Shown one piece after another: positions 7,442-64,000 of a DNA stretch of 64,000 nucleotides. Origin of the DNA: Nemertoderma westbladi (taxonomy: Eukaryota > Animalia > Xenacoelomorpha); assembly GCA_032718475.1 (NCBI GenBank), contig JAUCBJ010007053.1, positions 90,355-154,354 of the forward strand. Reading direction: 5' to 3'. Under the pieces are notes generated by a model that was not told the DNA's origin, did not search any database, and saw nothing but the letters and a program-made list of their open reading frames with translations. The position numbers and the translations under genes are program-made. How positions within the stretch are numbered: position 1 is the first letter of the stretch; each line of letters begins with the position of its first letter.

Positions 7442-7554
7442 TATTGTAATCCTACTTTTTTTTTACAAATGTGGTCTCATTGATTAACCAAAAAAATCAA
7501 TTAAAACTTTCAATATACATGATGCTATCACCAGCTAATATTACCAAGGCAACC

Positions 7555-8113: not shown

Positions 8114-8146
8114 TTGCTCTGTATAATAATAACGGTTGTCTTTCAG

Positions 8147-28100: not shown

Positions 28101-30203
28101 GTGATCACGGGGGTTCACGTGCGTACAGTAGTTTATGGGTAAGTCGGTGTCACGTGCGGTGATCACGGGGGTTCACCTGCGTACAGTAGTTTATGGGTAA
28201 GTCGGTGTCACGTGCGGTGATCACGTGGGTTCACGTGCGTACAGTAGTTTATGGGTAAGTCGGTGTCACGTGCGGTGATCACGGGGGTTCACGTGCGTAC
28301 AGTAGTTTATGGGTAAGTCGGTGTCACGTGCGGTGATCACGTGGGTTCACGTGCGTACAGTAGTTTATGGGTAAGTCGGTGTCACGTGCGGTGATCACGG
28401 GGGTTCACCTGCGTACAGTAGTTTATGGGTAAGTCGGTGTCACGTGCGGTGATCACGTGGGTTCACGTGCGTACAGTAGTTTATGGGTAAGTCGGTGTCA
28501 CGTGCGGTGATCACGGGGGTTCACGTGCGTACAGTAGTTTATGGGTAAGTCGGTGTCACGTGCGGTGATCACGGGGGTTCACCTGCGTACAGTAGTTTAT
28601 GGGTAAGTCGGTGTCACGTGCGGTGATCACGTGGGTTCACGTGCGTACAGTAGTTTATGGGTAAGTCGGTGTCACGTGCGGTGATCACGGGGGTTCACCT
28701 GCGTACAGTAGTTTATGGGTAAGTCGGTGTCACGTGCGGTGATCACGTGGGTTCACGTGCGTACAGTAGTTTATGGGTAAGTCGGTGTCACGTGCGGTGA
28801 TCACGGGGGTTCACGTGCGTACAGTAGTTTATGGGTAAGTCGGTGTCACGTGCGGTGATCACGTGGGTTCACGTGCGTACAGTAGTTTATGGGTAAGTCG
28901 GTGTCACGTGCGGTGATCACGTGGGTTCACGTGCGTACAGTAGTTTATGGGTAAGTAGGTGTCACGTGCGGTGATCACGTGGGTTCACGTGCGGTGATCA
29001 CGGGGGTTCACGTGCGTACAGTAGTTTATGGGTAAGTCGGTGTCACGTGCGGTGATCACGTGCGTACAGTAGTTTATGGGTAAGTCGGTGTCACGTGCGG
29101 TGATCACGTGCGTACAGTAGTTTATGGGTAAGTCGGTGTCACGTGCGGTGATCACGTGGGTTCACGTGCGTACAGTAGTTTATGGGTAAGTCGGTGTCAC
29201 GTGCGGTGATCACGGGGGTTCACGTGCGTACAGTAGTTTATGGGTAAGTCGGTGTCACGTGCGGTGATCACGGGGGTTCACGTGCGTACAGTAGTTTATG
29301 GGTAAGTCGGTGTCACGTGCGGTGATCACGGGGGTTCACGTGCGTACAGTAGTTTATGGGTAAGTCGGTGTCACGTGCGGTGATCACGGGGGTTCACCTG
29401 CGTACAGTAGTTTATGGGTAAGTCGGTGTCACGTGCGGTGCTCACGTGGGTTCACGTGCGTACAGTAGTTTATGGGTAAGTCGGTGTCACGTGCGGTGAT
29501 CACGTGGGTTCACGTGCGTACAGTAGTTTATGGGTAAGTCGGTGTCACGTGCGGTGATCACGTGGGTTCACGTGCGTACAGTAGTTTATGGGTAAGTCGG
29601 TGTCACGTGCGGTGATCACGGGGGTTCACCTGCGTACAGTAGTTTATGGGTAAGTCGGTGTCACGTGCGGTGATCACGGGGGTTCACCTGCGTACAGTAG
29701 TTTATGGGTAAGTCGGTGTCACGTGCGGTGATCACGGGGGTTCACGTGCGTACAGTAGTTTATGGGTAAGTCGGTGTCACGTGCGGTGATCACGGGGGTT
29801 CACGTGCGTACAGTAGTTTATGGGTAAGTCGGTGTCACGTGCGGTGATCACGTGGGTTCACGTGCGTACAGTAGTTTATGGGTAAGTCGGTGTCACGTGC
29901 GGTGATCACGTGGGTTCACGTGCGTACAGTAGTTTATGGGTAAGTCGGTGTCACGTGCGGTGATCACGGGGGTTCACCTGCGTACAGTAGTTTATGGGTA
30001 AGTCGGTGTCACGTGCGGTGATCACGGGGGTTCACGTGCGTACAGTAGTTTATGGGTAAGTCGGTGTCACGTGCGGTGATCACGGGGGTTCACGTGCGTA
30101 CAGTAGTTTATGGGTAAGTCGGTGTCACGTGCGGTGCCACGTGGGTTCACGTGCGGTGATCACGTGGGTTCACGTGCGGTGATCACGTGGGTTCACGTGC
30201 GTA
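25156..30203. repeat. 58-bp satellite (TTATGGGTAAGTCGGTGTCACGTGCGGTGATCACGTGGGTTCACGTGCGTACAGTAGT), about 87 copies
   Basis: Period 58; two main variants (CACGTGGG..CACGTG versus CACGGGGG..CACCTG). Confidence 0.97.
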
Positions 30204-32426: not shown

Positions 32427-35400
32427 AATTCATTTCTTCCTGTCCCGTAAGTTTATCGCCTATTTAATTCTTCCTATCCCGTAGTTTATCGCCTATTTAA
32501 TTCTTCCTGTCCCGTAGTTTATCGCCTATTTAATTCTTCCTATCCCGTAGTTTATCACCTATTTAATTCTTCCTATCCCGTAGTTTATCGCCTATTTAAT
32601 TCTTCCTATCCCGTAAGTTTATCGCGTATTTAATTCTTCCTATCCCGTAGTTTATCGCCTATTTAATTCTTCCTATCCCGTAGTTTATCACCTATTTAAT
32701 TCTTCCTATCCCGTAGTTTATCACCTATTTAATTCTTCCTGTCCCGTAGTTTATCGCCTATTTAATTCTTCCTATCCTGTAGTTTATCACCTATTTAATT
32801 CTTCCTGTCCCGTAGTTTATCGCCTATTTAATTCTTCCTATCCCGTAGTTTATCACCTATTTAATTCTTCCTATCCCGTAGTTTATCGCCTATTTAATTC
32901 TTCCTATCCCGTAAGTTTATCGCGTATTTAATTCTTCCTATCCCGTAGTTTATCGCCTATTAATTCTTCCTATCCCGTAGTTTATCACCTATTAATTCTT
33001 TCTGTCCTGTAGTTTATCGCCTATTTAATTCTTCCTATCCCGTAGTTTATCGCCTATTTAATTCTTCCTATCCCGTAGTTTATCACCTATTTAATTCTTC
33101 CTGTCCCGTAGTTTATCGCCTATTTAATTCTTCCTATCCTGTAGTTTATCGCCTATTTAATTCTTCCTGTCCCGTAAGTTTATCACCTATTTAATTCTTT
33201 CTATCCCGTTGTTTATCACCTATTTAATTATTCCTGTCCCGTAAGTTTATCACCTATTTAATTCTTCCTATCCCGTAGTTTATCACCTATTAATTCTTTC
33301 TGTCCTGTAGTTTATCGCTTATTTAATTCTTCCTATCCCGTAGTTTATCGCCTATTTAATTCTTCCTATCCCGTAGTTTATCGCCTATTTAATTCTTCCT
33401 ATCCCGTAGTTTATCACCTATTTAATTCTTCGTATCCCGTAGTTTATCACCTATTTAATTCTTCCTGTCCCGTAGTTTATCACCTATTTAATTCTTCCTA
33501 TCCCGTAGTTTATCGCCTATTTAATTTTTCCTATCCCGTAGTTTATCGCCTATTTAATTCTTCCTGTCCCGTAGTTTATCGCCTATTTAATTCTTCCTAT
33601 CCCGTAGTTTATCGCCTATTTAATTCTTCCTATCCCGTAGTTTATCACCTATTAATTCTTTCTGTCCCGTAAGTTTATCGCCTATTTAATTCTTCCTGTC
33701 CCGTAAGTTTATCGCCTATTTAATTCTTCCTATCCCGTAGTTTATCGCCTATTTAATTCTTCCTATCCCGTAGTTTATCGCCTATTTAATTCTTCCTATC
33801 CCGTAAGTTTATCGCGTATTTAATTCTTCGTATCCCGTAGTTTATCGCCTATTTAATTCTTCCTATCCCGTAGTTTATCGCCTATTTAATTCTTCCTATC
33901 CCGTAGTTTATCACCTATTTAATTCTTCCTATCCCGTAGTTTATCGCCTATTTAATTCTTCCTGTCCCGTAAGTTTATCACCTATTTAATTCTTCCTATC
34001 CCGTAGTTTATCACCTATTAATTCTTCCTGTCCCGTAGTTTATCGCCTATTTAATTCTTCCTATCCCGTAGTTTATCACCTATTTAATTCTTCCTATCCC
34101 GTAGTTTATCACCTATTTAATTCTTCCTATCCCGTAGTTTATCACCTATTAATTCTTCCTATCCCGTAGTTTATCGCCTATTTAATTCTTCCTGTCCCGT
34201 AAGTTTATCGCCTATTTAATTCTTCCTATCCCGTAGTTTATCGCCTATTTAATTCTTCCTGTCCCGTAAGTTTATCGCCTATTTAATTCTTCCTATCCCG
34301 TAGTTTATCGCCTATTTAATTCTTCCTATCCCGTAGTTTATCACCTATTAATTCTTCCTATCCCGTAGTTTATCGCCTATTTAATTCTTCCTGTCCCGTA
34401 AGTTTATCGCCTATTTAATTCTTCCTATCCCGTAGTTTATCACCTATTTAATTCTTCCTATCCCGTAGTTTATCACCTATTTAATTCTTCCTATCCCGTA
34501 GTTTATCACCTATTTAATTCTTCCTGTCCCGTAAGTTTATCACCTATTTAATTCTTCCTATCCCGTTGTTTATCGCCTATTTAATTCTTCCTATCCCGTA
34601 AGTTTATCACCTATTTAATTCTTCCTATCCCGTAGTTTATCGCGTATTTAATTCTTCCTGTCCCGTAAGTTTATCGCCTATTTAATTCTTCCTATCCCGT
34701 AGTTTATCACCTATTTAATTCTTCCTGTCCCGTAAGTTTATCACCTATTTAATTCTTCCTATCCCGTAGTTTATCACCTATTTAATTCTTCCTGTCCCGT
34801 AAGTTTATCACCTATTTAATTCTTCCTATCCCGTTGTTTATCGCCTATTTAATTCTTCCTGTCCCGTAAGTTTATCGCCTATTTAATTCTTCCTATCCCG
34901 TAGTTTATCACCTATTTAATTCTTCCTATCCCGTAGTTTATCGCCTATTTAATTCTTCCTATCCCGTAGTTTATCACCTATTTAATTCTTCCTGTCCCGT
35001 AAGTTTATCACCTATTTAATTCTTCCTATCCCGTTGTTTATCGCCTATTTAATTCTTCCTGTCCCGTAAGTTTATCGCCTATTTAATTCTTCCTATCCCG
35101 TAGTTTATCACCTATTTAATTCTTCCTATCCCGTAGTTTATCGCCTATTTAATTCTTCCTGTCCCGTAAGTTTATCGCCTATTTAATTCTTCCTATCCCG
35201 TAGTTTATCACCTATTTAATTCTTCCTGTCCCGTAAGTTTATCACCTATTAAATTCTTCCTATCCCGTTGTTTATCACCTATTTAATTCTTCCTGTCCCG
35301 TAAGTTTATCGCCTATTTAATTCTTCCTATCCCGTAGTTTATCGCCTATTTAATTCTTCCTATCCCGTAGTTTATCACCTATTAATTCTTCCTGTCCCGT

Positions 35401-38400
35401 AAGTTTATCGCCTATTTAATTCTTCCTATCCCGTAAGTTTATCGCCTATTTAATTCTTCCTATCCCGTAGTTTATCACCTATTTAATTATTCCTGTCCCG
35501 TAAGTTTATCACCTATTTAATTCTTCCTATCCCGTAGTTTATCACCTATTAATTCTTCCTGTCCCGTAAGTTTATCGCCTATTTAATTCTTCCTATCCCG
35601 TAGTTTATCGCCTATTTAATTCTTCCTGTCCCGTAGTTTATCGCCTATTTAATTCTTCCTATCCCGTAGTTTATCACCTATTTAATTCTTCCTGTCCCGT
35701 AAGTTTATCACCTATTTAATTCTTCCTGTCCCGTAGTTTATCGCCTATTTAATTCTTCCTATCCCGTTGTTTATCACCTATTTAATTCTTTCTATCCCGT
35801 AGTTTATCACCTATTTAATTCTTCCTGTCCCGTAAGTTTATCGCCTATTTAATTCTTCGTATCCCGTAGTTTATCGCCTATTTAATTCTTCCTATCCCGT
35901 AGTTTATCGCCTATTTAATTCTTCCTATCCCGTAGTTTATCACCTATTTAATTCTTCCTATCCCGTAGTTTATCGCCTATTTAATTCTTCCTATCCCGTA
36001 GTTTATCACCTATTTAATTCTTCCTGTCCCGTAGTTTATCGCCTATTTAATTCTTCCTATCCCGTAAGTTTATCACCTATTAATTCTTCCTATCCCGTAG
36101 TTTATCGCCTATTTAATTCTTCCTGTCCCGTAAGTTTATCGCCTATTTAATTCTTCCTATCCCGTAGTTTATCGCCTATTTAATTCTTCCTGTCCCGTAA
36201 GTTTATCGCCTATTTAATTCTTCCTATCCCGTAAGTTTATCGCCTATTTAATTCTTCCTATCCCGTAGTTTATCACCTATTAATTCTTTCTGTCCTGTAG
36301 TTTATCGCCTATTTAATTCTTCCTGTCCCGTAGTTTATCGCCTATTTAATTCTTCCTATCCCGTAGTTTATCACCTATTAATTCTTTCTGTCCCGTAGTT
36401 TATCGCCTATTTAATTCTTCCTATCCCGTAGTTTATCGCCTATTTAATTCTTCCTATCCCGTAAGTTTATCGCGTATTTAATTCTTCCTATCCCGTAGTT
36501 TATCGCCTATTTAATTCTTCCTATCCCGTAGTTTATCGCCTATTTAATTCTTCCTATCCCGTAGTTTATCACCTATTTAATTCTTCCTATCCCGTAGTTT
36601 ATCGCCTATTTAATTCTTCCTGTCCCGTAAGTTTATCACCTATTTAATTCTTCCTATCCCGTAGTTTATCACCTATTTAATTCTTCCTGTCCCGTAGTTT
36701 ATCGCCTATTTAATTCTTCCTATCCCGTAGTTTATCACCTATTTAATTCTTCCTATCCCGTAGTTTATCGCTTATTAATTCTTCCTATCCCGTAGTTTAT
36801 CGCCTATTTAATTCTTCCTATCCCGTAAGTTTATCGCCTATTTAATTCTTCCTATCCCGTAGTTTATCGCTTATTAATTCTTCCTATCCCGTAGTTTATC
36901 GCCTATTTAATTCTTCCTATCCCGTAGTTTATCGCCTATTTAATTCTTCCTATCCCGTAGTTTATCGCCTATTTTTAATTCTTCGTATCCCGTAGTTTAT
37001 CACCTATTTAATTCTTCCTATCCCGTAGTTTATCACCTATTTAATTCTTCCTGTCCCGTAGTTTATCGCCTATTTAATTCTTCCTATCCCGTAGTTTATC
37101 GCCTATTTAATTCTTCCTATCCCGTAGTTTATCGCCTATTTTTAATTCTTCGTATCCCGTAGTTTATCACCTATTTAATTCTTCCTATCCCGTAGTTTAT
37201 CACCTATTTAATTCTTCCTGTCCCGTAGTTTATCGCCTATTTAATTCTTCCTATCCCGTAGTTTATCACCTATTTAATTCTTCCTATCCCGTAGTTTATC
37301 GCTTATTAATTCTTCCTATCCCGTAGTTTATCGCCTATTTAATTCTTCCTATCCCGTAGTTTATCACCTATTAATTCTTCCTGTCCCGTAAGTTTATCAC
37401 CTATTTAATTCTTCCTATCCCGTAGTTTATCACCTATTTAATTCTTCCTATCCCGTAAGTTTATCGCCTATTTAATTCTTCCTATCCCGTAGTTTATCGC
37501 TTATTAATTCTTCCTATCCCGTAGTTTATCGCCTATTTAATTCTTCCTATCCCGTAAGTTTATCGCCTATTTAATTCTTCCTATCCCGTAAGTTTATCGC
37601 CTATTTAATTCTTCCTATCCCGTAGTTTATCGCTTATTAATTCTTCCTATCCCGTAGTTTATCGCCTATTTAATTCTTCCTATCCCGTAAGTTTATCGCC
37701 TATTTAATTCTTCCTATCCCGTAGTTTATCGCTTATTAATTCTTCCTATCCCGTAGTTTATCGCCTATTTAATTCTTCCTATCCCGTAAGTTTATCGCCT
37801 ATTTAATTCTTCCTATCCCGTAGTTTATCGCTTATTAATTCTTCCTATCCCGTAGTTTATCGCCTATTTAATTCTTCCTATCCCGTAAGTTTATCGCCTA
37901 TTTAATTCTTCCTATCCCGTAGTTTATCGCCTATTTAATTCTTCCTATCCCGTAGTTTATCGCTTATTAATTCTTCCTATCCCGTAGTTTATCGCCTATT
38001 TAATTCTTCCTATCCCGTAAGTTTATCGCCTATTTAATTCTTCCTATCCCGTAAGTTTATCACCTATTTAATTCTTCCTATCCCGTAGTTTATCGCTTAT
38101 TAATTCTTCCTATCCCGTAGTTTATCGCCTATTTAATTCTTCCTATCCCGTAAGTTTATCGCCTATTTAATTCTTCCTATCCCGTAGTTTATCGCGTATT
38201 TAATTCTTCCTATCCCGTAGTTTATCGCGTATTTAATTCTTCCTATCCCGTAGTTTATCACCTATTTAATTCTTCCTATCCCGTAGTTTATCACCTATTT
38301 AATTCTTCCTATCCCGTAGTTTATCGCCTATTAATTCTTCCTATCCCGTAGTTTATCGCCTATTTAATTCTTCCTGTCCCGTAGTTTATCGCCTATTTAA

Positions 38401-41400
38401 TTCTTCCTATCCCGTAGTTTATCGCCTATTTAATTCTTCCTATCCCGTAGTTTATCGCCTATTTAATTCTTCCTGTCCCGTAGTTTATCGCCTATTTAAT
38501 TCTTCCTATCCCGTAGTTTATCGCCTATTTAATTCTTCCTATCCCGTAGTTTATCACCTATTTAATTCTTCCTATCCCGTAGTTTATCACCTATTAATTC
38601 TTCCTATCCCGTAGTTTATCGCCTATTAATTCTTCCTATCCCGTAGTTTATCACCTATTTAATTCTTCCTATCCCGTAGTTTATCGCCTATTTAATTCTT
38701 CCTATCCCGTAGTTTATCGCCTATTTAATTCTTCCTATCCCGTAGTTTATCGCCTATTTAATTCTTCCTATCCCGTAGTTTATCACCTATTTAATTCTTC
38801 CTATCCCGTAGTTTATCACCTATTTAATTCTTCCTGTCCCGTAAGTTTATCACCTATTTAATTCTTCCTATCCCGTAAGTTTATCGCCTATTTAATTCTT
38901 CCTATCCCGTAGTTTATCACCTATTTAATTCTTCCTATCCCGTAGTTTATCACCTATTAATTCTTCCTGTCCCGTAGTTTATCGCCTATTTAATTCTTCC
39001 TATCCCGTAGTTTATCGCCTATTTAATTCTTCCTGTCCCGTAAGTTTATCGCCTATTTAATTCTTCCTGTCCCGTAAGTTTATCGCCTATTTAATTCTTC
39101 CTATCCCGTAAGTTTATCACCTATTTAATTATTCGTATTCCGTAGTTTATCACCTATTTAATTCTTCCTGTCCCGTAAGTTTATCGCCTATTTAATTCTT
39201 CCTATCCCGTAGTTTATCGCCTATTTTTAATTCTTCGTATCCCGTAGTTTATCGCCTATTTAATTCTTCCTGTCCCGTAGTTTATCGCCTATTTAATTCT
39301 TCCTATCCCGTAGTTTATCGCGTATTTAATTCTTCCTGTCCCGTAAGTATATCGCCTATTTAATTCTTCCTATCCCGTAGTTTATCACCTATTTAATTCT
39401 TCCTATCCCGTAGTTTATCGCCTATTTAATTCTTCCTATCCCGTAGTTTATCGCCTATTTAATTCTTCCTATCCCGTAGTTTATCGCCTATTTAATTCTT
39501 CCTATCCCGTAGTTTATCGCCTATTTAATTCTTCCTGTCCCGTAGTTTATCGCCTATTTAATTCTTCCTATCCCGTAGTTTATCGCCTATTTAATTCTTC
39601 CTGTCCCGTAAGTTTATCACCTATTTAATTCTTCCTATCCCGTAGTTTATCGCCTATTTAATTCTTCCTATCCCGTAGTTTATCGCCTATTTAATTCTTC
39701 CTATCCCGTAGTTTATCGCCTATTTAATTCTTCCTGTCCCGTAGTTTATCGCCTATTTAATTCTTCCTATCCCGTAGTTTATCGCCTATTTAATTCTTCC
39801 TGTCCCGTAAGTTTATCACCTATTTAATTCTTCCTATCCCGTAGTTTATCACCTATTTAATTCTTCCTAACCCGTAGTTTATCACCTATTTAATTCTTCC
39901 TATCCCGTAGTTTATCGCCTATTTAATTCTTCCTATCCCGTAGTTTATCGCCTATTTAATTCTTCCTGTCCCGTAAGTTTATCACCTATTTAATTCTTCC
40001 TATCCCGTAGTTTATCACCTATTTAATTCTTCCTATCCCGTAGTTTATCGCCTATTTAATTCTTCCTATCCCGTAGTTTATCTCCTATTTAATTCTTCCT
40101 GTCCCGTAAGTTTATCGCCTATTTAATTCTTCCTATCCCGTAGTTTATCGCCTATTTAATTCTTCCTATCCCGTAGTTTATCACCTATTTAATTCTTCCT
40201 GTCCCATAAGTTTATCGCCTATTTAATTCTTCCTATCCCGTAAGTTTATCGCCTATTTAATTCTTCCTATCCCGTAGTTTATCGCCTATTTAATTCTTCC
40301 TATCCCGTAGTTTATCGCCTATTTAATTCTTCCTGTCCCGTAGTTTATCGCCTATTTAATTCTTCCTATCCCGTAGTTTATCACCTATTTAATTCTTCCT
40401 GTCCCGTAAGTTTATCGCCTATTTAATTCTTCCTATCCCGTAAGTTTATCGCCTATTTAATTCTTCCTATCCCGTAAGTTTATCGCCTATTTAATTCTTC
40501 CTATCCCGTAGTTTATCACCTATTAATTCTTCCTGTCCCGTAGTTTATCGCCTATTTAATTCTTCCTATCCCGTAGTTTATCGCCTATTTAATTCTTCCT
40601 ATCCCGTAGTTTATCGCCTATTTAATTCTTCCTATCCCGTAGTTTATCGCCTATTTAATTCTTCCTATCCCGTAGTTTATCGCCTATTTAATTCTTCCTA
40701 TCCCGTAGTTTATCGCCTATTTAATTCTTCCTATCCCGTAGTTTATCGCCTATTTAATTCTTCCTATCCCGTAAGTTTATCGCCTATTTAATTCTTCGTA
40801 TCCCGTAGTTTATCTCCTATTTAATTCTTCCTATCCCGTAGTTTATCGCGTATTTAATTCTTCCTGTCCCGTAAGTTTATCGCCTATTTAATTCTTCCTA
40901 TCCCGTAGTTTATCACCTATTAATTCTTCCTGTCCCGTAGTTTATCGCCTATTTAATTCTTCCTATCCCGTAAGTTTATCGCCTATTTAATTCTTCGTAT
41001 CCCGTAGTTTATCTCCTATTTAATTCTTCCTATCCCGTAGTTTATCGCGTATTTAATTCTTCCTGTCCCGTAAGTTTATCGCCTATTTAATTCTTCCTAT
41101 CCCGTAGTTTATCACCTATTAATTCTTCCTGTCCCGTAGTTTATCGCCTATTTAATTCTTCCTATCCCGTAAGTTTATCGCCTATTTAATTCTTCGTATC
41201 CCGTAGTTTATCTCCTATTTAATTCTTCCTATCCCGTAGTTTATCGCCTATTTAATTCTTCCTATCCCGTAGTTTATCGCCTATTTAATTCTTCCTATCC
41301 CGTAGTTTATCGCCTATTTAATTCTTCCTATCCCGTAGTTTATCGCCTATTTAATTCTTCCTATCCCGTAAGTTTATCGCCTATTTAATTCTTCGTATCC

Positions 41401-41677
41401 CGTAGTTTATCTCCTATTTAATTCTTCCTATCCCGTAGTTTATCGCCTATTTAATTCTTCGTATCCCGTAGTTTATCTCCTATTTAATTCTTCCTATCCC
41501 GTAGTTTATCGCCTATTTAATTCTTCCTATCCCGTAGTTTATCGCCTATTTAATTCTTCCTATCCCGTAGTTTATCGCCTATTTAATTCTTCCTGTCCCG
41601 TAAGTTTATCGCCTATTTAATTCTTCCTATCCCGTAAGTTTATCGCCTATTCATTTCTTCCTATCCCGTAGTTTATC
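32427..41677 (+). repeat. 33-bp satellite derived from the splice acceptor of exon F (TATTTAATTCTTCCTATCCCGTAG|TTTATCGCC), about 280 copies
   Basis: Period 33 (32-35 variants); the final monomer is the actual acceptor and continues as TTTATC into the exon. Confidence 0.95.
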
Positions 41678-41828
41678 CATTCTCGACGTCGCCTACATAG
41701 ATGTCGCTTTCCGTTGCGTCGATTTTCTACTCGCGCTTTGGTTTCCCCTCGCCCTCTGGAACTGGGCGCATCCGGAACAGAATTGGTGTCTCAACCCACA
41801 GAAACTAATAAAACTAACGGACATTCAG
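41672..41828 (+). CDS. Exon F of the membrane protein gene (further TM helix)
   Basis: cccgtag|...|gtaata; phase 2 in, matching exon E (AA+T = Asn). Reads LSILDVAYIDVAFRCVDFLLALWFPLALWNWAHPEQNWCLNPQKLIKLTDIQ, stop-free and hydrophobic, and is the only unique sequence between two satellites. Confidence 0.85.
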
Positions 41829-44800
41829 GTAATAACAACTGTTCCACCCACAGAAACTCCTAAAACTAACGGACATTCAGGTAATAACTGTTCCACCCAC
41901 AGAAAGTCATGAAACTAACGAACATTCAGGTAATAACTGTTCCACCCACAGAAACTCCTAAAACTAACGGACATTCAGGTAATAACTGTTCCACCCACAG
42001 AAAGTCATGAAACTAACGAACATTCAGGTAATAACTGTTCCACCCACAGAAAGTCATGAAACTAACGAACATTCAGGTAATAACTGTTCCACCCACAGAA
42101 ACTCCTAAAACTAACGGACATTCAGGTAATAACAACTGTTCCACCCACAGAAACTCATAAAAATAACGGACATTCAGGTAATAACTGTTCCACCCACAGA
42201 AACTCCTAAAACTAACGGACATTCAGGTAATAACTGTTCCACCCACAGTAACTCATAAAACTAACGGACATTCAGGTAATAACAACTGTTCCACCCACAG
42301 AAACTCATAAAAATAACGGACATTCAGGTAATAACTGTTCCACCCACAGAAACTCATAAAACTAACGGACATTCAGGTAATAACTGTTCCACCCACAGAA
42401 ACTCATAATACTAACGGACATTCAGGTAATAACAACTGTTCCACCCACAGAAACTCATAATACTAACGGATATACAGGTAATAACAACTGTTCCACCCAC
42501 AGTAACTCATAAAACTAACGGACATTCAGGTAATAACTGTTCCACCCACAGAAACTCATAAAACTAACGGACATTCAGGTAATAACTGTTCCACCCTCAG
42601 AAACTCATAATACTAACGGACATTCAGGTAATAACAACTGTTCCACCCACAGAAACTCATAATACTAACGGATATACAGGTAATAACAACTGTTCCACCC
42701 ACAGTAACTCATAAAACTAACGGACATTCAGGTAATAACTGTTCCACCCACAGAAACTCATAAAACTAACGGACATTCAGGTAATAACTGTTCCACCCTC
42801 AGAAACTCATAATACTAACGGACATTCAGGTAATAACTGTTCCACCCACAGTAACTCATAAAGCTAACGGACATTCAGGTAATAACTGTTCCACCCACAG
42901 AAACTCATAAAACTAACGGACATTCAGGTAATAACTGTTCCACCCACAGAAACTCATAAAACTAACGGACATTCAGGTAATAACTGTTCCTCCCACAGAA
43001 ACTCATAAAACTAACGAACATTCAGGTAATAACTGTTCCACCCACAGAAACTCATAAAACTAACGGACATTCAGGTAATAACTGTTCCACCCACAGAAAC
43101 TCATAAAACTAACGGACATTCAGGTAATAACTGTTCCACCCACAGAAACTCATAAAACTAACGGACATTCAGGTAATAACTGTTCCACCCACAGAAACTC
43201 ATAAAACTAACGGACATTCAGGTAATAACTGTTCCACCCACAGAAACTCATAAAACTAACGGACATTCAGGTAATAACTGTTCCTCCCACAGAAACTCAT
43301 AAAACTAACGGACATTCAGGTAATAACAACTGTTCCACCCACAGTAACTCATAAAACTAACGGACATTCAGGTAATAACTGTTCCACCCACAGAAACTCA
43401 TAAAACTAACGGACATTCAGGTAATAACTGTTCCACCCACAGAAACTCATAAAACTAACGGACATTCAGGTAATAACTGTTCCACCCACAGTAACTCATA
43501 AAACTAACTGACATTCAGGTAATAACAACTGTTCCACCCACAGTAACTCATAAAACTAACGGACATTCAGGTAATAACTGTTCCACCCACAGTAACTCAT
43601 AAAACTAACTGACATTCAGGTAATAACAACTGTTCCACCCACAGAAACTCATAAAAATAACGGACATTCAGGTAATAACTGTTCCACCCACAGAAACTCA
43701 TAAAACTAACGGACATTCAGGTAATAACTGTTCCACCCACAGAAACTCATAAAACTAACGGACATTCAGGTAATAACTGTTCCACCCACAGAAAGTCATG
43801 AAACTAACGAACATTCAGGTAATAACTGTTCCACCCACAGAAACTCATAGAACTAACGGACATTCAGGTAATAATAACTGTTCCACCCACAGAAACTCTT
43901 AAAAATAACGGACATTCAGGTAATAACTGTTCCACCCACAGAAACTCATAAAAATAACGGACATTCAGGTAATAACTGTTCCACCCACAGAAACTCATAA
44001 AACTAACGGACATTCAGGTAATAACTGTTCCACCCTCAGAAACACATAATACTAACGGACATTCAGGTAATAACTGTTCCACCCACAGTAACTCATAAAG
44101 CTAACGGACATTCAGGTAATAACTGTTCCACCCACAGAAACTCATAATACTAACGGACATTCAGGTAATAACTGTTCCACCCACAGAAACTCATAAAACT
44201 AACGGACATTCAGGTAATAACTGTTCCACCCACAGAAACTCATAAAACTAACGGACATTCAGGTAATAACTGTTCCACCCACAGAAACTCATAAAACTAA
44301 CGGACATTCAGGTAATAACTGTTCCACCCACAGAAACTCATAAAACTAACGGACATTCAGGTAATAACTGTTCCTCCCACAGAAACTCATAAAACTAACG
44401 GACATTCAGGTAATAACAACTGTTCCACCCACAGTAACTCATAAAACTAACGGACATTCAGGTAATAACTGTTCCACCCACAGAAACTCATAAAACTAAC
44501 GGACATTCAGGTAATAACTGTTCCACCCACAGAAACTCATAAAACTAACGGACATTCAGGTAATAACTGTTCCTCCCACAGAAACTCATAAAACTAACGG
44601 ACATTCAGGTAATAACAACTGTTCCACCCACAGAAACTCATAAAACTAACGGACATTCAGGTAATAACTGTTCCACCCACAGAAACTCATAAAACTAACG
44701 GACATTCAGGTAATAACTGTTCCACCCACAGTAACTCATAAAACTAACGGACATTCAGGTAATAACAACTGTTCCACCCACAGTAACTCATAAAACTAAC

Positions 44801-50800: not shown

Positions 50801-53800
50801 TAACTGTTCCACCCACAGAAACTCATAAAAATAACGGACATTCAGGTAATAACTGTTCCACCCACAGAAACTCATAAAACTAACGGACATTCAGGTAATA
50901 ACTGTTCCACCCACAGAAACTCATAAAACTAACGGACATTCAGGTAATAACTGTTCCACCCACAGAAAGTCATGAAACTAACGAACATTCAGGTAATAAC
51001 TGTTCCACCCACAGTAACTCATAAAACTAACTGACATTCAGGTAATAATAACTGTTCCACCCACAGAAACTCATAAAACTAACGGACATTCAGGTAATAA
51101 CTGTTCCACCCACAGAAACTCATAAAACTAACGGACATTCAGGTAATAACTGTTCCACCCACAGAAACTCATAAAACTAACGGACATTCAGGTAATAACT
51201 GTTCCACCCACAGAAACTCATAAAAATAACGGACATTCAGGTAATAACTGTTCCACCCACAGAAACTCATAAAACTAACGGACATTCAGGTAATAACTGT
51301 TCCACCCACAGAAACTCATAAAACTAACGGAGATTCAGGTAATAACTGTTCCTCCCACAGAAACTCATAAAACTAACGGACATTCAGGTAATGACAACTG
51401 TTCCACCCACAGTAACTCATAATACTAACGGACATTCAGGTAATAACTGTTCCACCCACAGAAACTCATAAAACTAACGGACATTCAGGTAATAACTGTT
51501 CCACCCACAGAAACTCATAAAACTAACGGACATTCAGGTAATAACTGTTCCACCCACAGTAACTCATAAAACTAACTGACATTCAGGTAATAATAACTGT
51601 TCCACCCACAGAAACTCATAAAACTAACGGACATTCAGGTAATAACTGTTCCTCCCACAGAAACTCATAAAACTAACGGACATTCAGGTAATAACTGTTC
51701 CACCCACAGAAACTCATAAAACTAACGGACATTCAGGTAATAACTGTTCCACCCACAGAAACTCATAAAACTAACGGACATTCAGGTAATAACTGTTCCA
51801 CCCACAGAAACTCATAAAACTAACGGACATTCAGGTAATAATAACTGTTCCACCCACAGTAACTCATAAAACTAACGGACATTCAGGTAATAACTGTTCC
51901 ACCCACAGAAACTCATAAAACTAACGGACATTCAGGTAATAACTGTTCCACCCACAGAAACTCATAAAACTAACGGACATTCAGGTAATAACTGTTCCAC
52001 CCACAGAAACTCATAAAACTAACGGACATTCAGGTAATAACTGTTCCACCCACAGAAACTCATAAAACTAACGGACATTCAGGTAATAACTGTTCCTCCC
52101 ACAGAAACTCATAAAACTAACGGACATTCAGGTAATAACTGTTCCACCCACAGAAACTCATAAAACTAACGGACATTCAGGTAATAACTGTACCAACCAC
52201 AGAAACTCATAAAACTAACGGACATTCAGGTAATAACTGTTCCACCCACAGAAACTCATAATACTAACGGACATTCAGGTAATAACTATTCCACCCACAG
52301 AAACTCATAAAACTAACGGACATTCAGGTAATAACTGTTCCACCCACAGAAACTCATAAAACTAACGGACATTCAGGTAATAACTGTTCCACCCACAGAA
52401 ACTCATAATACTAACGGACATTCAGGTAATAACTGTTCCACCCACAGAAACTCATAAAACTAACGGACATTCAGGTAATAACTGTTCCACCCACAGAAAC
52501 TCATAAAACTAACGGACATTCAGGTAATAACTGTACCAACCACAGAAACTCATAAAACTAACGGACATTCAGGTAATAACTGTTCCACCCACAGAAACTC
52601 ATAATACTAACGGACATTCAGGTAATAACTATTCCACCCACAGAAACTCATAATACTAACGGACATTCAGGTAATAACTGTTCCACCCACAGAAACTCAT
52701 AAAACTAACGGACATTCAGGTAATAACTGTTCCACCCACAGAAAGTCATGAAACTAACGAACATTCAGGTAATAACTGTTCCACCCACAGTAACTCATAA
52801 AACTAACTGACATTCAGGTAATAATAACTGTTCCACCCACAGAAACTCTTAAAAATAACGGACATTCAGGTAATAACTGTTCCACCCACAGAAACTCATA
52901 AAACTAACGGACATTCAGGTAATAACTGTTCCACCCACAGTAACTCATAAAACTAACTGACATTCAGGTAATAATAACTGTTCCACCCACAGAAACTCAT
53001 AAAACTAACGGACATTCAGGTAATAACTGTTCCTCCCACAGAAACTCATAAAACTAACGGACATTCAGGTAATAACTGTTCCACCCACAGAAACTCATAA
53101 AACTAACGGACATTCAGGTAATAACTGTTCCACCCACAGAAACTCATAAAACTAACGGACATTCAGGTAATAACTGTTCCACCCACAGAAACTCATAAAA
53201 CTAACGGACATTCAGGTAATAATAACTGTTCCACCCACAGAAACTCATAAAACTAACGGACATTCAGGTAATAACTGTTCCACCCACAGAAACTCATAAA
53301 ACTAACGGACATTCAGGTAATAACTGTTCCACCCACAGAAACTCATAAAACTAACGGACATTCAGGTAATAACTGTTCCACCCACAGAAACTCATAAAAC
53401 TAACGGACATTCAGGTAATAACTGTTCCACCCACAGAAACTCATAAAACTAACGGACATTCAGGTAATAACTGTTCCTCCCACAGAAACTCATAAAACTA
53501 ACGGACATTCAGGTAATAACTGTTCCACCCACAGAAACTCATAAAACTAACGGACATTCAGGTAATAACTGTTCCACCCACAGAAACTCATAAAACTAAC
53601 GGACATTCAGGTAATAACTGTTCCACCCACAGAAACTCATAATACTAACGGACATTCAGGTAATAACTATTCCACCCACAGAAACTCATAAAACTAACGG
53701 ACATTCAGGTAATAACTGTTCCACCCACAGAAACTCATAAAACTAACGGACATTCAGGTAATAACTGTTCCACCCACAGAAACTCATAATACTAACGGAC

Positions 53801-56800
53801 ATTCAGGTAATAACTGTTCCACCCACAGAAACTCATAAAACTAACGGACATTCAGGTAATAACTGTTCCACCCACAGAAACTCATAAAACTAACGGACAT
53901 TCAGGTAATAACTGTACCAACCACAGAAACTCATAAAACTAACGGACATTCAGGTAATAACTGTTCCACCCACAGAAACTCATAATACTAACGGACATTC
54001 AGGTAATAACTATTCCACCCACAGAAACTCATAATACTAACGGACATTCAGGTAATAACTGTTCCACCCACAGAAACTCATAAAACTAACGGACATTCAG
54101 GTAATAACTGTTCCACCCACAGAAAGTCATGAAACTAACGAACATTCAGGTAATAACTGTTCCACCCACAGTAACTCATAAAACTAACTGACATTCAGGT
54201 AATAATAACTGTTCCACCCACAGAAACTCTTAAAAATAACGGACATTCAGGTAATAACTGTTCCACCCACAGAAACTCATAAAAATAACGGACATTCAGG
54301 TAATAACTGTTCCACCCACAGAAACTCATAAAACTAACGGACATTCAGGTAATAACTGTTCCACCCACAGAAACTCATAAAACTAACGGACATTCAGGTA
54401 ATAACTGTTCCACCCACAGAAAGTCATGAAACTAACGAACATTCAGGTAATAACTGTTCCACCCACAGTAACTCATAAAACTAACTGACATTCAGGTAAT
54501 AATAACTGTTCCACCCACAGAAACTCATAAAAATAACGGACATTCAGGTAATAACTGTTCCACCCACAGAAACTCATAAAACTAACGGACATTCAGGTAA
54601 TAACTGTTCCACCCACAGAAAGTCATGAAACTAACGAACATTCAGGTAATAACTGTTCCACCCACAGTAACTCATAAAACTAACGGACATTCAGGTAATA
54701 ACAACTGTTCCACCCACAGTAACTCATAAAACTAACTGACATTCAGGTAATAATAACTGTTCCACCCACAGAAACTCATAAAAATAACGGACATTCAGGT
54801 AACAACTGTTCCACCCACAGAAACTCATAAAACTAACGGACATTCAGGTAATAACTGTTCCACCCACAGAAAGTCATGAAACTAACGAACATTCAGGTAA
54901 TAACTGTTCCACCCACAGAAACTCATAAAACTAACGGACATTCAGGTAATAACAACTGTTCCACCCACAGAAACTCATAATACTAACGGACATTCAGGTA
55001 ATAACAACTGTTCCACCCACAGTAACTCATAAAACTAACTGACATTCAGGTAATAATAACTGTTCCACCCACAGAAACTCATAAAAATAACGGACATTCA
55101 GGTAACAACTGTTCCACCCACAGAAACTCATAAAACTAACGGACATTCAGGTAATAACAACTGTTCCACCCACAGTAACTCATAAAACTAACTGACATTC
55201 AGGTAATAATAACTGTTCCACCCACAGAAACTCATAAAAATAACGGACATTCAGGTAACAACTGTTCCACCCACAGAAACTCATAAAACTAACGGACATT
55301 CAGGTAATAACTGTTCCACCCACAGAAAGTCATGAAACTAACGAACATTCAGGTAATAACTGTTCCACCCTCAGAAACTCATAATACTAACGGACATTCA
55401 GGTAATAACTGTTCCACCCACAGAAACTCATAAAACTAACGGACATTCAGGTAATAATTGTTCCAACCACAGAAACTCATAAAACTAACGGACATTCAGG
55501 TAATAACAACTGTTCCACCCACAGAAACTCATAAAACTAACGGACATTCAGGTAATAATTGTTCCAACCACAGAAACTCATAAAACTAACGAACATTCAG
55601 GTAATAACTGTACCAACCACAGAAACTCATAAAACTAACGGACATTCAGGTAATAACTATTCCACCCACAGAAACTCATAATACTAACGGACATTCAGGT
55701 AATAACTGTTCCACCCACAGAAACTCATAAAACTAACGGACATTCAGGTAATAACTATTCCACCCACAGAAACTCATAATACTAACGGACATTCAGGTAA
55801 TAACTGTTCCACCCACAGAAACTCATAAAACTAACGGACATTCAGGTAATAACTGTTCCACCCACAGAAACTCATAAAACTAACGGACATTCAGGTAATA
55901 ACTATTCCACCCACAGAAACTCATAATACTAACGGACATCCAGGTAATAACAACTGTTCCACCCACAGAAACTCATAAAAATAACGGACATTCAGGTAAT
56001 AACTGTTCCACCCACAGAAACTCATAAAACTAACGAACATTCAGGTAATAACTGTTCCACCCACAGAAACTCATAAAACTAACGGACATTCAGGTAATAA
56101 CTGTACCACCCACAGAAACTCATAAAACTAACAGACATTCAGGTTATAACTTTTCCACCAACAGAAACTCATAAAACTAACGGACATTCAGGTAATAACT
56201 GTTCCACCCACAGAAACTCATAAAACTAACGGACATTCAGGTAATAACTGTTCCACCCACAGAAACTCATAAAACTAACGGACATTCAGGTAATAACTGT
56301 TCCAACCACAGAAACTCATAATACTAACGGACATTCAGGTAATAACAACTGTTCCACCCACAGAAACTCATAAAACTAACGAACATTCAGGTAATAACTG
56401 TACCAACCACAGAAACTCATAAAACTAACGGACATTCAGGTAATAACAACTGTTCCACCCACAGAAACTCATAAAACTAACGGACATTCAGGTAATAACT
56501 GTACCACCCACAGAAACTCATAAAACTAACAGACATTCAGGTTATAACTTTTCCACCAACAGAAACTCATAAAACTAACGGACATTCAGGTAATAACTGT
56601 TCCACCCACAGAAACTCATAAAACTAACGGACATTCAGGTAATAACTGTTCCACCCACAGAAACTCATAAAACTAACGGACATTCAGGTAATAACTGTTC
56701 CAACCACAGAAACTCATAATACTAACGGACATTCAGGTAATAACAACTGTTCCACCCACAGAAACTCATAAAACTAACGAACATTCAGGTAATAACTGTT

Positions 56801-59800
56801 CCAACCACAGAAACTCATAAAACTAACGGACATTCAGGTAATAACTGTTCCAACCACAGAAACTCATAATACTAACGGACATTCAGGTAATAACAACTGT
56901 TCCACCCACAGAAACTCATAAAACTAACGAACATTCAGGTAATAACTGTACCACCCACAGAAACTCATAATACTAACGGACATTCAGGTAATAACTGTTC
57001 CACCCACAGAAACTCATAATACTAACGGACATTCAGGTAATAACTATTCCACCCACAGAAACTCATAATACTAACGGACATTCAGGTAATAACTGTTCCA
57101 CCCACAGAAACTCATAAAACTAACGGACATTCAGGTAATAACTGTTCCACCCACAGAAACTCATAATACTAACGGACATCCAGGTAATAACTGTTCCACC
57201 CACAGAAACTCATAATACTAACGGACATTCAGGTAATAACTATTCCACCCACAGAAACTCATAATACTAACGGACATTCAGGTAATAACTGTTCCACCCA
57301 CAGAAACTCATAATACTAACGGACATTCAGGTAATAACTATTCCACCCACAGAAACTCATAATACTAACGGACATTCAGGTAATAACTGTTCCACCCACA
57401 GAAACTCATAATACTAACGGACATTCAGGTAATAACTATTCCACCCACAGAAACTCATAATACTAACGGACATTCAGGTAATAACTGTTCCACCCACAGA
57501 AACTCATAAAACTAACGGACATTCAGGTAATAACTGTTCCACCCACAGAAAGTCATGAAACTAACGAACATTCAGGTAATAACTGTTCCACCCACAGTAA
57601 CTCATAAAACTAACTGACATTCAGGTAATAATAACTGTTCCACCCACAGAAACTCTTAAAAATAACGGACATTCAGGTAATAACTGTTCCACCCACAGAA
57701 ACTCATAAAAATAACGGACATTCAGGTAATAACTGTTCCACCCACAGAAACTCATAAAACTAACGGACATTCAGGTAATAACTGTTCCACCCACAGAAAC
57801 TCATAAAACTAACGGACATTCAGGTAATAACTGTTCCACCCACAGAAAGTCATGAAACTAACGAACATTCAGGTAATAACTGTTCCACCCACAGTAACTC
57901 ATAAAACTAACTGACATTCAGGTAATAATAACTGTTCCACCCACAGAAACTCATAAAAATAACGGACATTCAGGTAATAACTGTTCCACCCACAGAAACT
58001 CATAAAACTAACGGACATTCAGGTAATAACTGTTCCACCCACAGAAAGTCATGAAACTAACGAACATTCAGGTAATAACTGTTCCACCCACAGTAACTCA
58101 TAAAACTAACGGACATTCAGGTAATAACAACTGTTCCACCCACAGTAACTCATAAAACTAACTGACATTCAGGTAATAATAACTGTTCCACCCACAGAAA
58201 CTCATAAAAATAACGGACATTCAGGTAACAACTGTTCCACCCACAGAAACTCATAAAACTAACGGACATTCAGGTAATAACTGTTCCACCCACAGAAAGT
58301 CATGAAACTAACGAACATTCAGGTAATAACTGTTCCACCCACAGAAACTCATAAAACTAACGGACATTCAGGTAATAACAACTGTTCCACCCACAGAAAC
58401 TCATAATACTAACGGACATTCAGGTAATAACAACTGTTCCACCCACAGTAACTCATAAAACTAACTGACATTCAGGTAATAATAACTGTTCCACCCACAG
58501 AAACTCATAAAAATAACGGACATTCAGGTAACAACTGTTCCACCCACAGAAACTCATAAAACTAACAGACATTCAGGTAATAACAACTGTTCCACCCACA
58601 GTAACTCATAAAACTAACTGACATTCAGGTAATAATAACTGTTCCACCCACAGAAACTCATAAAAATAACGGACATTCAGGTAACAACTGTTCCACCCAC
58701 AGAAACTCATAAAACTAACGGACATTCAGGTAATAACTGTTCCACCCACAGAAAGTCATGAAACTAACGAACATTCAGGTAATAACTGTTCCACCCTCAG
58801 AAACTCATAATACTAACGGACATTCAGGTAATAACTGTTCCACCCACAGAAACTCATAAAACTAACGGACATTCAGGTAATAATTGTTCCAACCACAGAA
58901 ACTCATAAAACTAACGGACATTCAGGTAATAACAACTGTTCCACCCACAGAAACTCATAAAACTAACGGACATTCAGGTAATAATTGTTCCAACCACAGA
59001 AACTCATAAAACTAACGAACATTCAGGTAATAACTGTACCACCCACAGAAACTCATAAAACTAACGGACATTCAGGTAATAACTGTTCCACCCACAGAAA
59101 CTCATAAAACTAACGGACATTCAGGTAATAATTGTTCCAACCACAGAAACTCATAAAACTAACGAACATTCAGGTAATAACTGTACCACCCACAGAAACT
59201 CATAAAACTAACGGACATTCAGGTAATAATTGTTCCAACCACAGAAACTCATAAAACTAACGGACATTCAGGTAATAACTATTCCACCCACAGAAACTCA
59301 TAAAACTAACGGACATTCAGGTAATAACTGTTCCACCCACAGAAACTCATAAAACTAACGGACATTCAGGTAATAACTATTCCACCCACAGAAACTCATA
59401 ATACTAACGGACATTCAGGTAATAACTATTCCACCCACAGAAACTCATAAAACTAACGGACATTCAGGTAATAACTGTTCCACCCACAGAAACTCATAAA
59501 ACTAACGGACATTCAGGTAATAACTATTCCACCCACAGAAACTCATAATACTAACGGACATTCAGGTAATAACTGTTCCACCCACAGAAACTCATAAAAC
59601 TAACGGACATTCAGGTAATAACTGTTCCACCCACAGAAACTCATAAAACTAACGGACATTCAGGTAATAACTATTCCACCCACAGAAACTCATAATACTA
59701 ACGGACATCCAGGTAATAACAACTGTTCCACCCACAGAAACTCATAAAAATAACGGACATTCAGGTAATAACTGTTCCACCCACAGAAACTCATAAAACT

Positions 59801-62800
59801 AACGAACATTCAGGTAATAACTGTTCCACCCACAGAAACTCATAAAACTAACGGACATTCAGGTAATAACTGTACCACCCACAGAAACTCATAAAACTAA
59901 CAGACATTCAGGTTATAACTGTTCCACCAACAGAAACTCATAAAACTAACGGACATTCAGGTAATAACTGTTCCACCCACAGAAACTCATAAAACTAACG
60001 GACATTCAGGTAATAACTAACTGTTCCACCCACAGAAACTCATAAAACTAACGGACATTCAGGTAATAACTGTTCCAACCACAGAAACTCATAATACTAA
60101 CGGACATTCAGGTAATAACAACTGTTCCACCCACAGAAACTCATAAAACTAACGAACATTCAGGTAATAACTGTACCAACCACAGAAACTCATAAAACTA
60201 ACGGACATTCAGGTAATAACTATTCCACCCACAGAAAATCATAATACTAACGGACATCCAGGTAATAACAACTGTTCCACCCACAGAAACTCATAAAAAT
60301 AACGGACATTCAGGTAATAACTGTTCCACCCACAGAAACTCATAATACTAACGGACATTCAGGTAATAACAACTGTTCCACCCACAGAAACTCATAAAAA
60401 TAACGGACATTCAGGTAATAACTGTTCCACCCACAGAAACTCATAATACTAACGGACATTCAGGTAATAACAACTGTTCCACCCACAGAAACTCATAAAA
60501 CTAACGAACATTCAGGTAATAACTGTTCCAACCACAGAAACTCATAAAACTAACGAACATTCAGGTAATAACTGTACCAACCACAGAAACTCATAAAACT
60601 AACGGACATTCAGGTAATAACTATTCCACCCACAGAAACTCATAATACTAACGGACATCCAGGTAATAACAACTGTTCCACCCACAGAAACTCATAAAAA
60701 TAACGGACATTCAGGTAATAACTGTTCCACCCACAGAAACTCATAATACTAACGGACATTCAGGTAATAACAACTGTTCCACCCACAGAAACTCATAAAA
60801 CTAACGAACATTCAGGTAATAACTGTTCCACCCACAGAAACTCATAAAACTAACGGACATTCAGGTAATAACTGTACCACCCACAGAAACTCATAAAACT
60901 AACAGACATTCAGGTTATAACTGTTCCACCAACAGAAACTCATAAAACTAACGGACATTCAGGTAATAACTGTTCCACCCACAGAAACTCATAAAACTAA
61001 CGGACATTCAGGTAATAACTGTTCCACCCACAGAAACTCATAAAACTAACGGACATTCAGGTAATAACTGTTCCAACCACAGAAACTCATAATACTAACG
61101 GACATTCAGGTAATAACTGTTCCACCCACAGAAACTCATAATACTAACGGACATCCAGGTAATAACAACTGTTCCACCCACAGAAACTCATAAAAATAAC
61201 GGACATTCAGGTAATAACTGTTCCACCCACAGAAACTCATAATACTAACGGACATTCAGGTAATAACAACTGTTCCACCCACAGAAACTCATAAAAATAA
61301 CGGACATTCAGGTAATAACTGTTCCACCCACAGAAACTCATAATACTAACGGACATTCAGGTAATAACAACTGTTCCACCCACAGAAACTCATAAAACTA
61401 ACGAACATTCAGGTAATAACTGTTCCAACCACAGAAACTCATAAAACTAACGAACATTCAGGTAATAACTGTACCAACCACAGAAACTCATAAAACTAAC
61501 GGACATTCAGGTAATAACTATTCCACCCACAGAAACTCATAATACTAACGGACATCCAGGTAATAACAACTGTTCCACCCACAGAAACTCATAAAAATAA
61601 CGGACATTCAGGTAATAACTGTTCCACCCACAGAAACTCATAATACTAACGGACATTCAGGTAATAACAACTGTTCCACCCACAGAAACTCATAAAACTA
61701 ACGAACATTCAGGTAATAACTGTTCCACCCACAGAAACTCATAAAACTAACGGACATTCAGGTAATAACTGTACCACCCACAGAAACTCATAAAACTAAC
61801 AGACATTCAGGTTATAACTGTTCCACCAACAGAAACTCATAAAACTAACGGACATTCAGGTAATAACTGTTCCACCCACAGAAACTCATAAAACTAACGG
61901 ACATTCAGGTAATAACTGTTCCACCCACAGAAACTCATAAAACTAGCGGACATTCAGGTAATAACTGTTCCAACCACAGAAACTCATAATACTAACGGAC
62001 ATTCAGGTAATAACTGTTCCACCCACAGAAACTCATAATACTAACGGACATCCAGGTAATAACAACTGTTCCACCCACAGAAACTCATAAAAATAACGGA
62101 CATTCAGGTAATAACTGTTCCACCCACAGAAACTCATAATACTAACGGACATTCAGGTAATAACAACTGTTCCACCCACAGAAACTCATAAAAATAACGG
62201 ACATTCAGGTAATAACTGTTCCACCCACAGAAACTCATAATACTAACGGACATTCAGGTAATAACAACTGTTCCACCCACAGAAACTCATAAAACTAACG
62301 GACATTCAGGTAATAACTGTTCCAACCACAGAAACTCATAAAACTAACGGACATTCAGGTAATAACAACTGTTCCACCCACAGAAACTCATAAAAATAAC
62401 GGACATTCAGGTAATAACTGTTCCACCCACAGAAACTCATAAAACTAACGGACATCCAGGTAATAACAACTGTTCCACCCACAGAAACTCATAAAAATAA
62501 CGGACATTCAGGTAATAACTGTTCCACCCACAGAAACTCATAATACTAACGGACATTCAGGTAATAACAACTGTTCCACCCACAGAAACTCATAAAAATA
62601 ACGGACATTCAGGTAATAACTGTTCCACCCACAGAAACTCATAATACTAACGGACATTCAGGTAATAACAACTGTTCCACCCACAGAAACTCATAAAACT
62701 AACGGACATTCAGGTAATAACAACTGTTCCACCCACAGAAACTCATAAAACTAACGGACATTCAGGTAATAACTGTACCAACCACAGAAACTCATAAAAC

Positions 62801-64000
62801 TAACGGACATTCAGGTAATAACTGTTCCACCCACAGAAAGTCATGAAACTAACGAACATTCAGGTAATAACTGTTCCACCCACAGAAACTCATAAAACTA
62901 ACGGACATTCAGGTAATAACTGTTCCACCCACAGAAAGTCATGAAACTAACGAACATTCAGGTAATAACTGTTCCACCCACAGAAACTCATAAAACTAAC
63001 GGACATTCAGGTAATAACTGTTCCAACCACAGAAACTCATAAAACTAACGGACATTCAGGTAATAACTGTTCCACCCACAGAAAGTCATGAAACTAACGA
63101 ACATTCAGGTAATAACTGTTCCACCCACAGAAACTCATAAAACTAACGGACATTCAGGTAATAACTGTTCCACCCACAGAAAGTCATGAAACTAACGAAC
63201 ATTCAGGTAATAACTGTTCCACCCACAGAAAGTCATGAAACTAACGAACATTCAGGTAATAACTGTTCCACCCACAGAAACTCATAAAACTAACGGACAT
63301 TCAGGTAATAACTGTTCCAACCACAGAAACTCATAAAACTAACGGACATTCAGGTAATAACTGTTCCACCCACAGAAACTCATAAAACTAACGGACATTC
63401 AGGTAATAACTGTTCCACCCACAGAAACTCATAAACCTAACGGACATTCAGGTAATAACTGTTCCAACCACAGAAACTCATAAAACTAACGGACATTCAG
63501 GTAATAACTGTTCCAACCACAGAAACTCATAAAACTAACGGACATTCAGGTAATAACTGTTCCACCCACAGAAAGTCATGAAACTAACGAACATTCAGGT
63601 AATAACTGTTCCACCCACAGAAACTCATAAAACTAACGGACATTCAGGTAATAACTGTTCCACCCACAGAAACTCATAAAAATAACGGACATTCAGGTAA
63701 TAACTGTTCCAACCACAGAAACTCATAAAACTAACGGACATTCAGGTAATAACTGTTCCACCCACAGAAAGTCATAAAACTAACGGACATTCAAGTAATA
63801 ACTGTTCCACCCACAGAAACTCATAAAACTAACGGACATTCAGGTAATAATAACTGTTCCACCCACAGAAACTCATAAAAATAACGGACATTCAGGTAAT
63901 AACTGTTCCACCCACAGAAACTCATAATACTAACGGACATTCAGGTAATAACTATTCCACCCACAGAAACTCATAATACTAACGGACATCCAGGTAATAA
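41794..64000 (+). repeat. 49-bp satellite derived from the 3' end and donor of exon F (ACCCACAGAAACTCATAAAACTAACGGACATTCAG|GTAATAACTGTTCC), about 450 copies, continuing past the window
   Basis: Period 49 (52 with a 3-nt insertion); the first monomer comprises the last 35 nt of exon F plus its donor. Confidence 0.96.

Follow-up and report, generated by a model that had tools for sequence, protein, structure and literature searches.

A Nemertoderma westbladi exon lying between two large minisatellite arrays that straddle its own splice sites

How a single exon is spliced correctly when both of its edges are repeated hundreds of times beside it, and how such an arrangement came about, are the questions raised by this locus of the xenacoelomorph Nemertoderma westbladi. 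We have analyzed a window of 64,000 nt (the whole stretch taken from contig JAUCBJ010007053.1) in which a 157-nt exon, here called exon F, lies between one array that straddles its acceptor and another that straddles its donor. The account that we prefer, and hold to be probable on balance, is that two independent boundary duplications were followed by neutral minisatellite growth, that the innermost pair of sites is the one spliced and that the two-sidedness is due to chance.

Exon F (41672–41828, plus strand) is flanked by AG and GT, is entered in phase 2 and left in phase 0, and is joined to exon E (11052–11203) over an intron of 30,468 nt. The initial annotation had described it as open and phase-compatible with exon E, and this holds within a larger gene model: together with exons A (8147–8262), B (8399–8519), C (8658–8868) and D (10802–10926), all on the plus strand like E and F, they form a single open frame that encodes 294 aa, every exon edge having AG/GT. 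The product of exon F contains a hydrophobic (predicted membrane) segment and a W-x-L-N-P motif. Judging from sequence similarity, the host gene is a predicted multi-pass membrane protein of the invertebrate EGF/TOM1-like/RING-CH type. Among the six exons scanned singly against Pfam, one gave a weak match to THH1/TOM1/TOM3 (E 0.0097, below the cut-off), a family that was also the Atlas lead for the host (as a lead only), and exon F alone had no Pfam match. Word-indexed protein searches gave nothing at E ≤ 0.001 for exon F (3 candidates) or exon C (42 candidates), and HMMER with exon C as query found 66 relatives. The 20 of these that were looked up came from a priapulid, nemertean, insect, mite, mollusc, cnidarian, echinoderm, brachiopod and sponge, with no lancelet name among the 20. 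All five relatives scanned had a RINGv domain together with a weak EGF-like match (and one of them a weak THH1/TOM1/TOM3 match), the full-length proteins having the EGF-like part at the N-terminus and RINGv at the C-terminus.

When compared with the window by tblastn, 25 of the 66 relatives matched exon F. The alignment was built with the 25 relatives covering most of the query, leaving out the 41 partial ones, so that the tree has 26 rows. W280, N283 and P284 are identical in all 25 aligned relatives and position 287 is L or I in 24 of them; the protein homology of exon F is thereby established. N283 and P284 lie at and inside the start of the donor repeat, and L287 also belongs to the repeated part. 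The closest relative over the six exons (Lineus) has ca. 45% identity, and the tree places the host in an open fork. Upstream of exon A and in opposite orientation to the host gene, the minus strand carries an intronless open frame of 342 aa (3600–4628) that matches inositol monophosphatase (PF00459, E 3e-43). Since the expected EGF-coding start of the host had no tblastn match before 8120, this frame may be a nested gene or a retrocopy within a host intron.

The tandem repeats of the window, whose GC content by kilobase ranges from ca. 35 to 59%, were detected with TRF, and its 77 rows were merged into 15 arrays. The acceptor array (32427–41677, plus strand) consists of ca. 279 copies of a 33-nt unit with variants of 32–35 nt (TRF: 32434–41677, period 33, 278.7 copies, 94% matches). 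Its unit corresponds to 22 nt of the intron end followed by exon nucleotides 1–6 and 20–24, and aligns to 41650–41695 with two substitutions and a single 13-nt gap. The donor array (41787–64000, plus strand) has at least 448 copies of a 49-nt unit with 52-nt variants (TRF: 41794–64000, period 49, 447.9 copies, 94% matches, cut by the window end). Here the unit, 41% A on the sense strand, comprises 41 nt matching the last 42 exon nucleotides (one base lost) plus the first 8 intron nucleotides, and aligns to 41787–41836 with two substitutions and one gap. The ca. 450 donor copies initially reported are thus upheld, but not the composition given for them, 35 coding nucleotides plus the donor. Both arrays are made of head-to-tail, minisatellite-sized units, each across a real exon-intron boundary including the splice site, and both reach from their exon edge into the adjoining intron, the exon being the source. 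The unit alignments agree with the earlier description of two unrelated monomers that each straddle one boundary of exon F. Neither unit includes the other boundary, and no match to either was found in window positions 1–32426. The copy of the donor unit within exon F carries the canonical poly(A) hexamer AATAAA at 41807–41812, 16 nt 5' of the donor, where most array copies have CATAAA.

There are 272 AG/TTTAT sites including the true acceptor, 203 of them with TAG and 69 with AAG, and in 6 of the 278 acceptor units an A-to-T change has destroyed the AG. The true acceptor, TTCATTTCTTCC, occurs twice in the window, once at each end of the acceptor array, whereas the interior copies read TTTAATTCTTCC (n = 230); the acceptor used in the spliced contig described below, its tract being TTCATTTC, occupies 41650–41671 on the plus strand with its TAG at 41669–41671. 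Therefore, the initial claim of about 280 copies of the complete 3' splice site stands in number but not letter for letter, and that of a repeated TAG applies to the 203 sites, not to the AAG sites or the six units without AG. Within the 17-nt stretch scored, the true acceptor has 14 pyrimidines and the interior decoys scored 13. On the donor side we counted 440 NAG/GTAA sites, 429 of them CAG/GTAATA. Units differ from their consensus by an average of ca. 1.4 (acceptor) and 1.6 (donor) letters, with indels counted per letter and an A insertion counted twice, a low divergence indicating that the arrays are young or actively homogenized. The number of distinct variants is 38 and 60, respectively, with higher-order runs. 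The acceptor array is homogenized in its interior and divergent at its edge units; as for the donor array, its far end lies outside the window.

Evidence of splicing came from public sequencing runs. Four (X1–X4) of the six listed were compared, as assembled contigs, with 41605–41932 (328 nt); X1 and X3 derive from one sample and X2 from another study. A contig of X4 (1593 nt, depth 461) matched exon F with 0 mismatches and 0 gaps. The 30 nt at its end before 41672 are, by eye, window positions 11174–11203, and beyond 41828 it enters sequence absent from the window, so that the junction 11203/41672 and the donor at 41828, the two points at which the initial annotation could be checked, are both spanned without mismatch. 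X4 is recorded as 'DNA?', a tool's guess, and none of the six listed runs is recorded as RNA; whether X4 is RNA or contains a retrocopy, its junctions derive from a spliced message. We found this spliced contig in one of the four runs, and no decoy junction was listed among the contig ends in 41605–41932, where contigs drop rare forms and nonsense-mediated decay (NMD) would hide products. Exon F is a real exon whose splicing is well supported, and the innermost splice pair is the only one used in the one spliced transcript seen. Both monomers were present in X1, X2 and X3, where the same indel variants recur and the units again join head to tail. No contig listed in X1–X4 connects either array with the unique core of the exon (contigs collapse arrays), X1–X3 did not cover the core and X4 did not cover the 33-nt unit, gaps that prove nothing. 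X4 also has short contigs of the 49-nt unit (window 41808–41910) at depths of 16–96, which may stem from internal priming on pre-mRNA or from stray DNA.

Arrays of this kind belong to a known class. Tandem repeats spanning exon-intron boundaries have been called mirages in lancelets, where the hosts include Adh3, the globins BflGb6 and BflGb9, troponin C and PGBD5 (PMC3087553, PMC3902484). The unit lies on the acceptor side in BflGb6 and on the donor side in BflGb9, and the way in which mirages arise was called unclear (PMC3087553). Their interior is homogenized, their edge units are divergent and splicing is apparently undisturbed (PMC3087553, PMC3902484); the boundary-spanning unit, homogenized interior and divergent edges are common to them and to the arrays of exon F. 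The BflGb6 mirages even have edge copies with a variant absent inside, the same pattern as in our acceptor array (PMC3087553). However, the counts given in the available text of these papers are of 2–7 units, whereas the arrays of exon F have ca. 279 and at least 448. They also straddle its acceptor and its donor alike, a two-sidedness that this text does not describe for the amphioxus mirages (Adh3 being known through citing papers). In humans, the first unit of the 37-bp VNTR in intron 7 of F7 (IVS7) spans the donor and is followed by identical pseudo-sites, of which the most upstream is used, also in minigenes (PMC1557585). Donor-spanning minisatellites listed with it are those of 6-16, CBS IVS13, LMNB2 and PDGF intron 4, with 5 to ca. 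26 units (PMC1557585). As far as that source describes them, these are confined to the donor side, whereas exon F has a facing acceptor array too; the exon makes up 41 of 49 nt of our donor unit, as against 4 of 37 nt in F7. Splicing in 6-16 and CBS makes use of two pseudo-sites as well, while the contig of exon F shows the innermost pair in use. Human segmental duplications likewise contain internal tandem repeats at exon-intron boundaries, with units of ca. 30 nt that expand into the intron or the exon (PMC2812944); they differ in having ca. 4 copies on average and, in the part of that paper available, in being reported for paralogues in segmental duplications only. In the literature searched we found no two-sided or hundred-copy case, which is weak evidence of absence as many searches were unproductive. 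What stands out here is the scale, ca. 10–20 times the largest published count found in these partly available sources, plus the straddling of both exon edges. The initial annotation, which presented the locus as a test of exon definition, had overlooked that the class is published and that the F7 VNTR has already been treated as a natural test of splice-site choice (PMC1557585).

The decoys are mostly destructive if used. An in-frame stop follows 270 of the 271 decoy acceptors, 237 of these stops being five codons past the junction. The exception is the nearest decoy, 41638 (41637–41638, plus strand), which is of AAG type, is overlapped by GTAAGT and keeps the frame, adding 33 open nucleotides in a poorly conserved stretch; the two decoy acceptors nearest the true site are both AAG. 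Among the decoy donors 438 of 439 lead to an in-frame stop, at codon +27, and the remaining one, the second donor, adds 52 nt and shifts the frame. Hence the spliced contig, the decoy stops and the homology agree with the initial view that only the innermost pair yields the conserved exon. The AAG variant creates GTAAGT, so that 69 such donors form acceptor-donor pairs inside the upstream array, where 1 of 587 pseudo-exons of 20–300 nt is stop-free and in frame. Four decoy acceptors (41638, 41604, 41570 and 41537) lie less than 300 nt from the true donor and would give exons of 190–291 nt, so exon definition by distance alone is insufficient; together with the 69 GTAAGT, this means that the exon definition initially invoked does not by itself explain the locus. 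GT is unchanged in all 447 donor units, as are 21 of the 49 unit positions (P = 0.18), and there is no sign that decoy splice dinucleotides have been purged or specially retained. A purging of decoy signals was considered and rejected, none being seen.

The sequence of the units restricts the possible histories. Both are wholly local sequence, indicating that the arrays arose in place, and since neither contains the other boundary two separate events are required and a single duplication of the whole exon can be rejected as the common origin of the arrays. An exonized satellite is likewise rejected, with the conserved codons of N283 and P284 at or inside the repeat start: the donor unit includes the invariant P284 codon, so the direction was from exon to repeat and the coding sequence is older. 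Ratchet points of recursive splicing have the form AG/GT. They resemble the donor unit in its CAG/GTAATA with an upstream CTAAC and differ from it in acceptor strength; CTAAC ends 11 nt before the unit end and pyrimidines account for only 7 of the 17 nucleotides before CAG, making a poor acceptor, and this reading was rejected too.

The process that we favor would have begun with independent short tandem duplications across each boundary of exon F; on the acceptor side the duplicated piece would have been the last 22 intron and first 24 exon nucleotides with a 13-nt deletion. Unequal exchange and slippage would then have expanded and homogenized the arrays, with the older state persisting in the edge copies. 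The mRNA is spliced at 41672 and 41828, as seen in one contig. The donor would be chosen as the first, exon-proximal copy, as in human F7. A first-come rule fails on the acceptor side, where transcription passes ca. 270 decoys on its way to the true site; this acceptor would probably be picked by pairing with the true donor across the unique 116-nt exon core, perhaps with some help from its pyrimidine tract, which is slightly richer, and from the AAG type of the two nearest decoys. Mis-spliced products would nearly always contain a stop codon and would likely be cleared by NMD, in which case the arrays cost little; they are likely harmless passengers. The two-sidedness would be a product of chance, the gene being very rich in repeats and selection removing duplications confined to the exon.

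Tandem repeats make up 42,228 of the 55,854 nt from 8147 to the window end (ca. 76% of the gene). In the same intron, an array of an unrelated 58-nt unit (25193–30201, plus strand), taken as a control, contains 86 GTAAGT at 11 kb from any host exon found, so decoy-rich satellites are ordinary in this gene. Two other arrays, 7552–8114 and 8970–10348, lie 33 nt 5' of the exon A acceptor and 102 nt 3' of the exon C donor without containing the splice sites. The 30.5-kb intron also harbors non-LTR retroelements at 12010–14826 (plus strand) and 17307–21771 (minus strand), with unbroken endonuclease/reverse-transcriptase frames of 938 and 1065 aa, the 468-aa upstream frame of the latter having no Pfam match. 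One 31-nt unit forms two arrays of the same orientation (15015–17038 and 23528–24573) that flank the minus-strand element; they are possibly one split array or two seedings, and their ends show no clean phase continuity. A 483-aa open frame on the minus strand (21896–23347), whose 10-residue repeat corresponds to a 30-nt array (21901–22988), possibly belongs to a mobile element.

To estimate how often chance would place arrays in this way, each was collapsed to one unit, giving 20.7 kb with 15 seeds. At this seed density a given boundary is straddled with p ca. 0.02, at least two of the 12 boundaries of the six exons with 0.02–0.03, and a two-sided exon appears among six with 0.002–0.003, a low value that speaks against chance. 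Extrapolated to an assumed 150,000 exons, 50–75 two-sided exons would be expected, and the earlier claim that the symmetry is hard to obtain randomly and points to amplification tied to boundaries is not established. The null rests on one repeat-rich window chosen for this feature and on an assumed exon number; its seed density is probably too high for the whole genome, and thus the chance test cuts both ways. The rival reading that birth is biased to exon edges, or that one array destabilizes its neighborhood, with the arrays neutral afterwards, is possible though doubtful. Linker DNA beside an exon-positioned nucleosome and splicing-coupled R-loops are candidate causes of such a bias. It would account for the fact that the two boundaries straddled, out of 12, both belong to exon F, and the recurrence of mirages across several lancelet genes hints at a real bias (PMC3087553, PMC3902484), but published cases were found because they are located at exons, 13 of the 15 arrays of the window straddle none of these 12 boundaries, and the other 10 boundaries have no copy nearby (0 of 10 within 3 kb). 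The combined proposal, that minisatellites are seeded in this genome preferentially at exon edges and that the spliceosome still finds one 157-nt exon among ca. 270 decoy acceptors and more than 440 identical decoy donors, seems to us unlikely.

That the units are real but the assembly has inflated the arrays or misjoined them to the exon is very unlikely. Copy numbers are assembly-derived, one DNA run may be the assembly's own source and no listed contig bridges an array and at least 31 letters of unique exon core; yet the units derive from the edges of exon F itself and are deep in runs of two studies, and 38 and 60 variants with higher-order runs are unexpected from a collapse or loop artefact. 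We also consider highly improbable a regulatory role, either through copy-number-dependent NMD by decoy splicing or through an isoform with an 11-residue insertion from the +33-nt acceptor. The splice dinucleotides are intact in most units and the +33-nt form is open and falls where conservation is poor, two extra pseudo-sites are used in human 6-16 and CBS (PMC1557585), and X4 has the low-depth contigs of the 49-nt unit. However, an A-rich unit of this kind may be caught by internal oligo-dT priming, the X4 contig ends listed include no decoy junction, signals are retained no better than other unit positions, and stops are expected in random intron-derived sequence without selection. Independent duplication at each boundary with neutral growth afterwards remains our preferred account.

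The locus is a record-size, two-sided example indicating that hundreds of exact splice-site copies can be tolerated beside an exon, and it calls for caution when genes are annotated and reads mapped in genomes rich in repeats. Its acceptor side is the more informative half, the F7 work, as far as available, having covered donors only. If boundaries proved to be enriched for arrays genome-wide, this would bear on the origin of mirages and on intron gain by tandem duplication. And if seeding at exon edges were the true reading, exon F would be the most extreme case found in which nature puts exon recognition to the test, and would suggest a mutation process linked to exon-intron structure.
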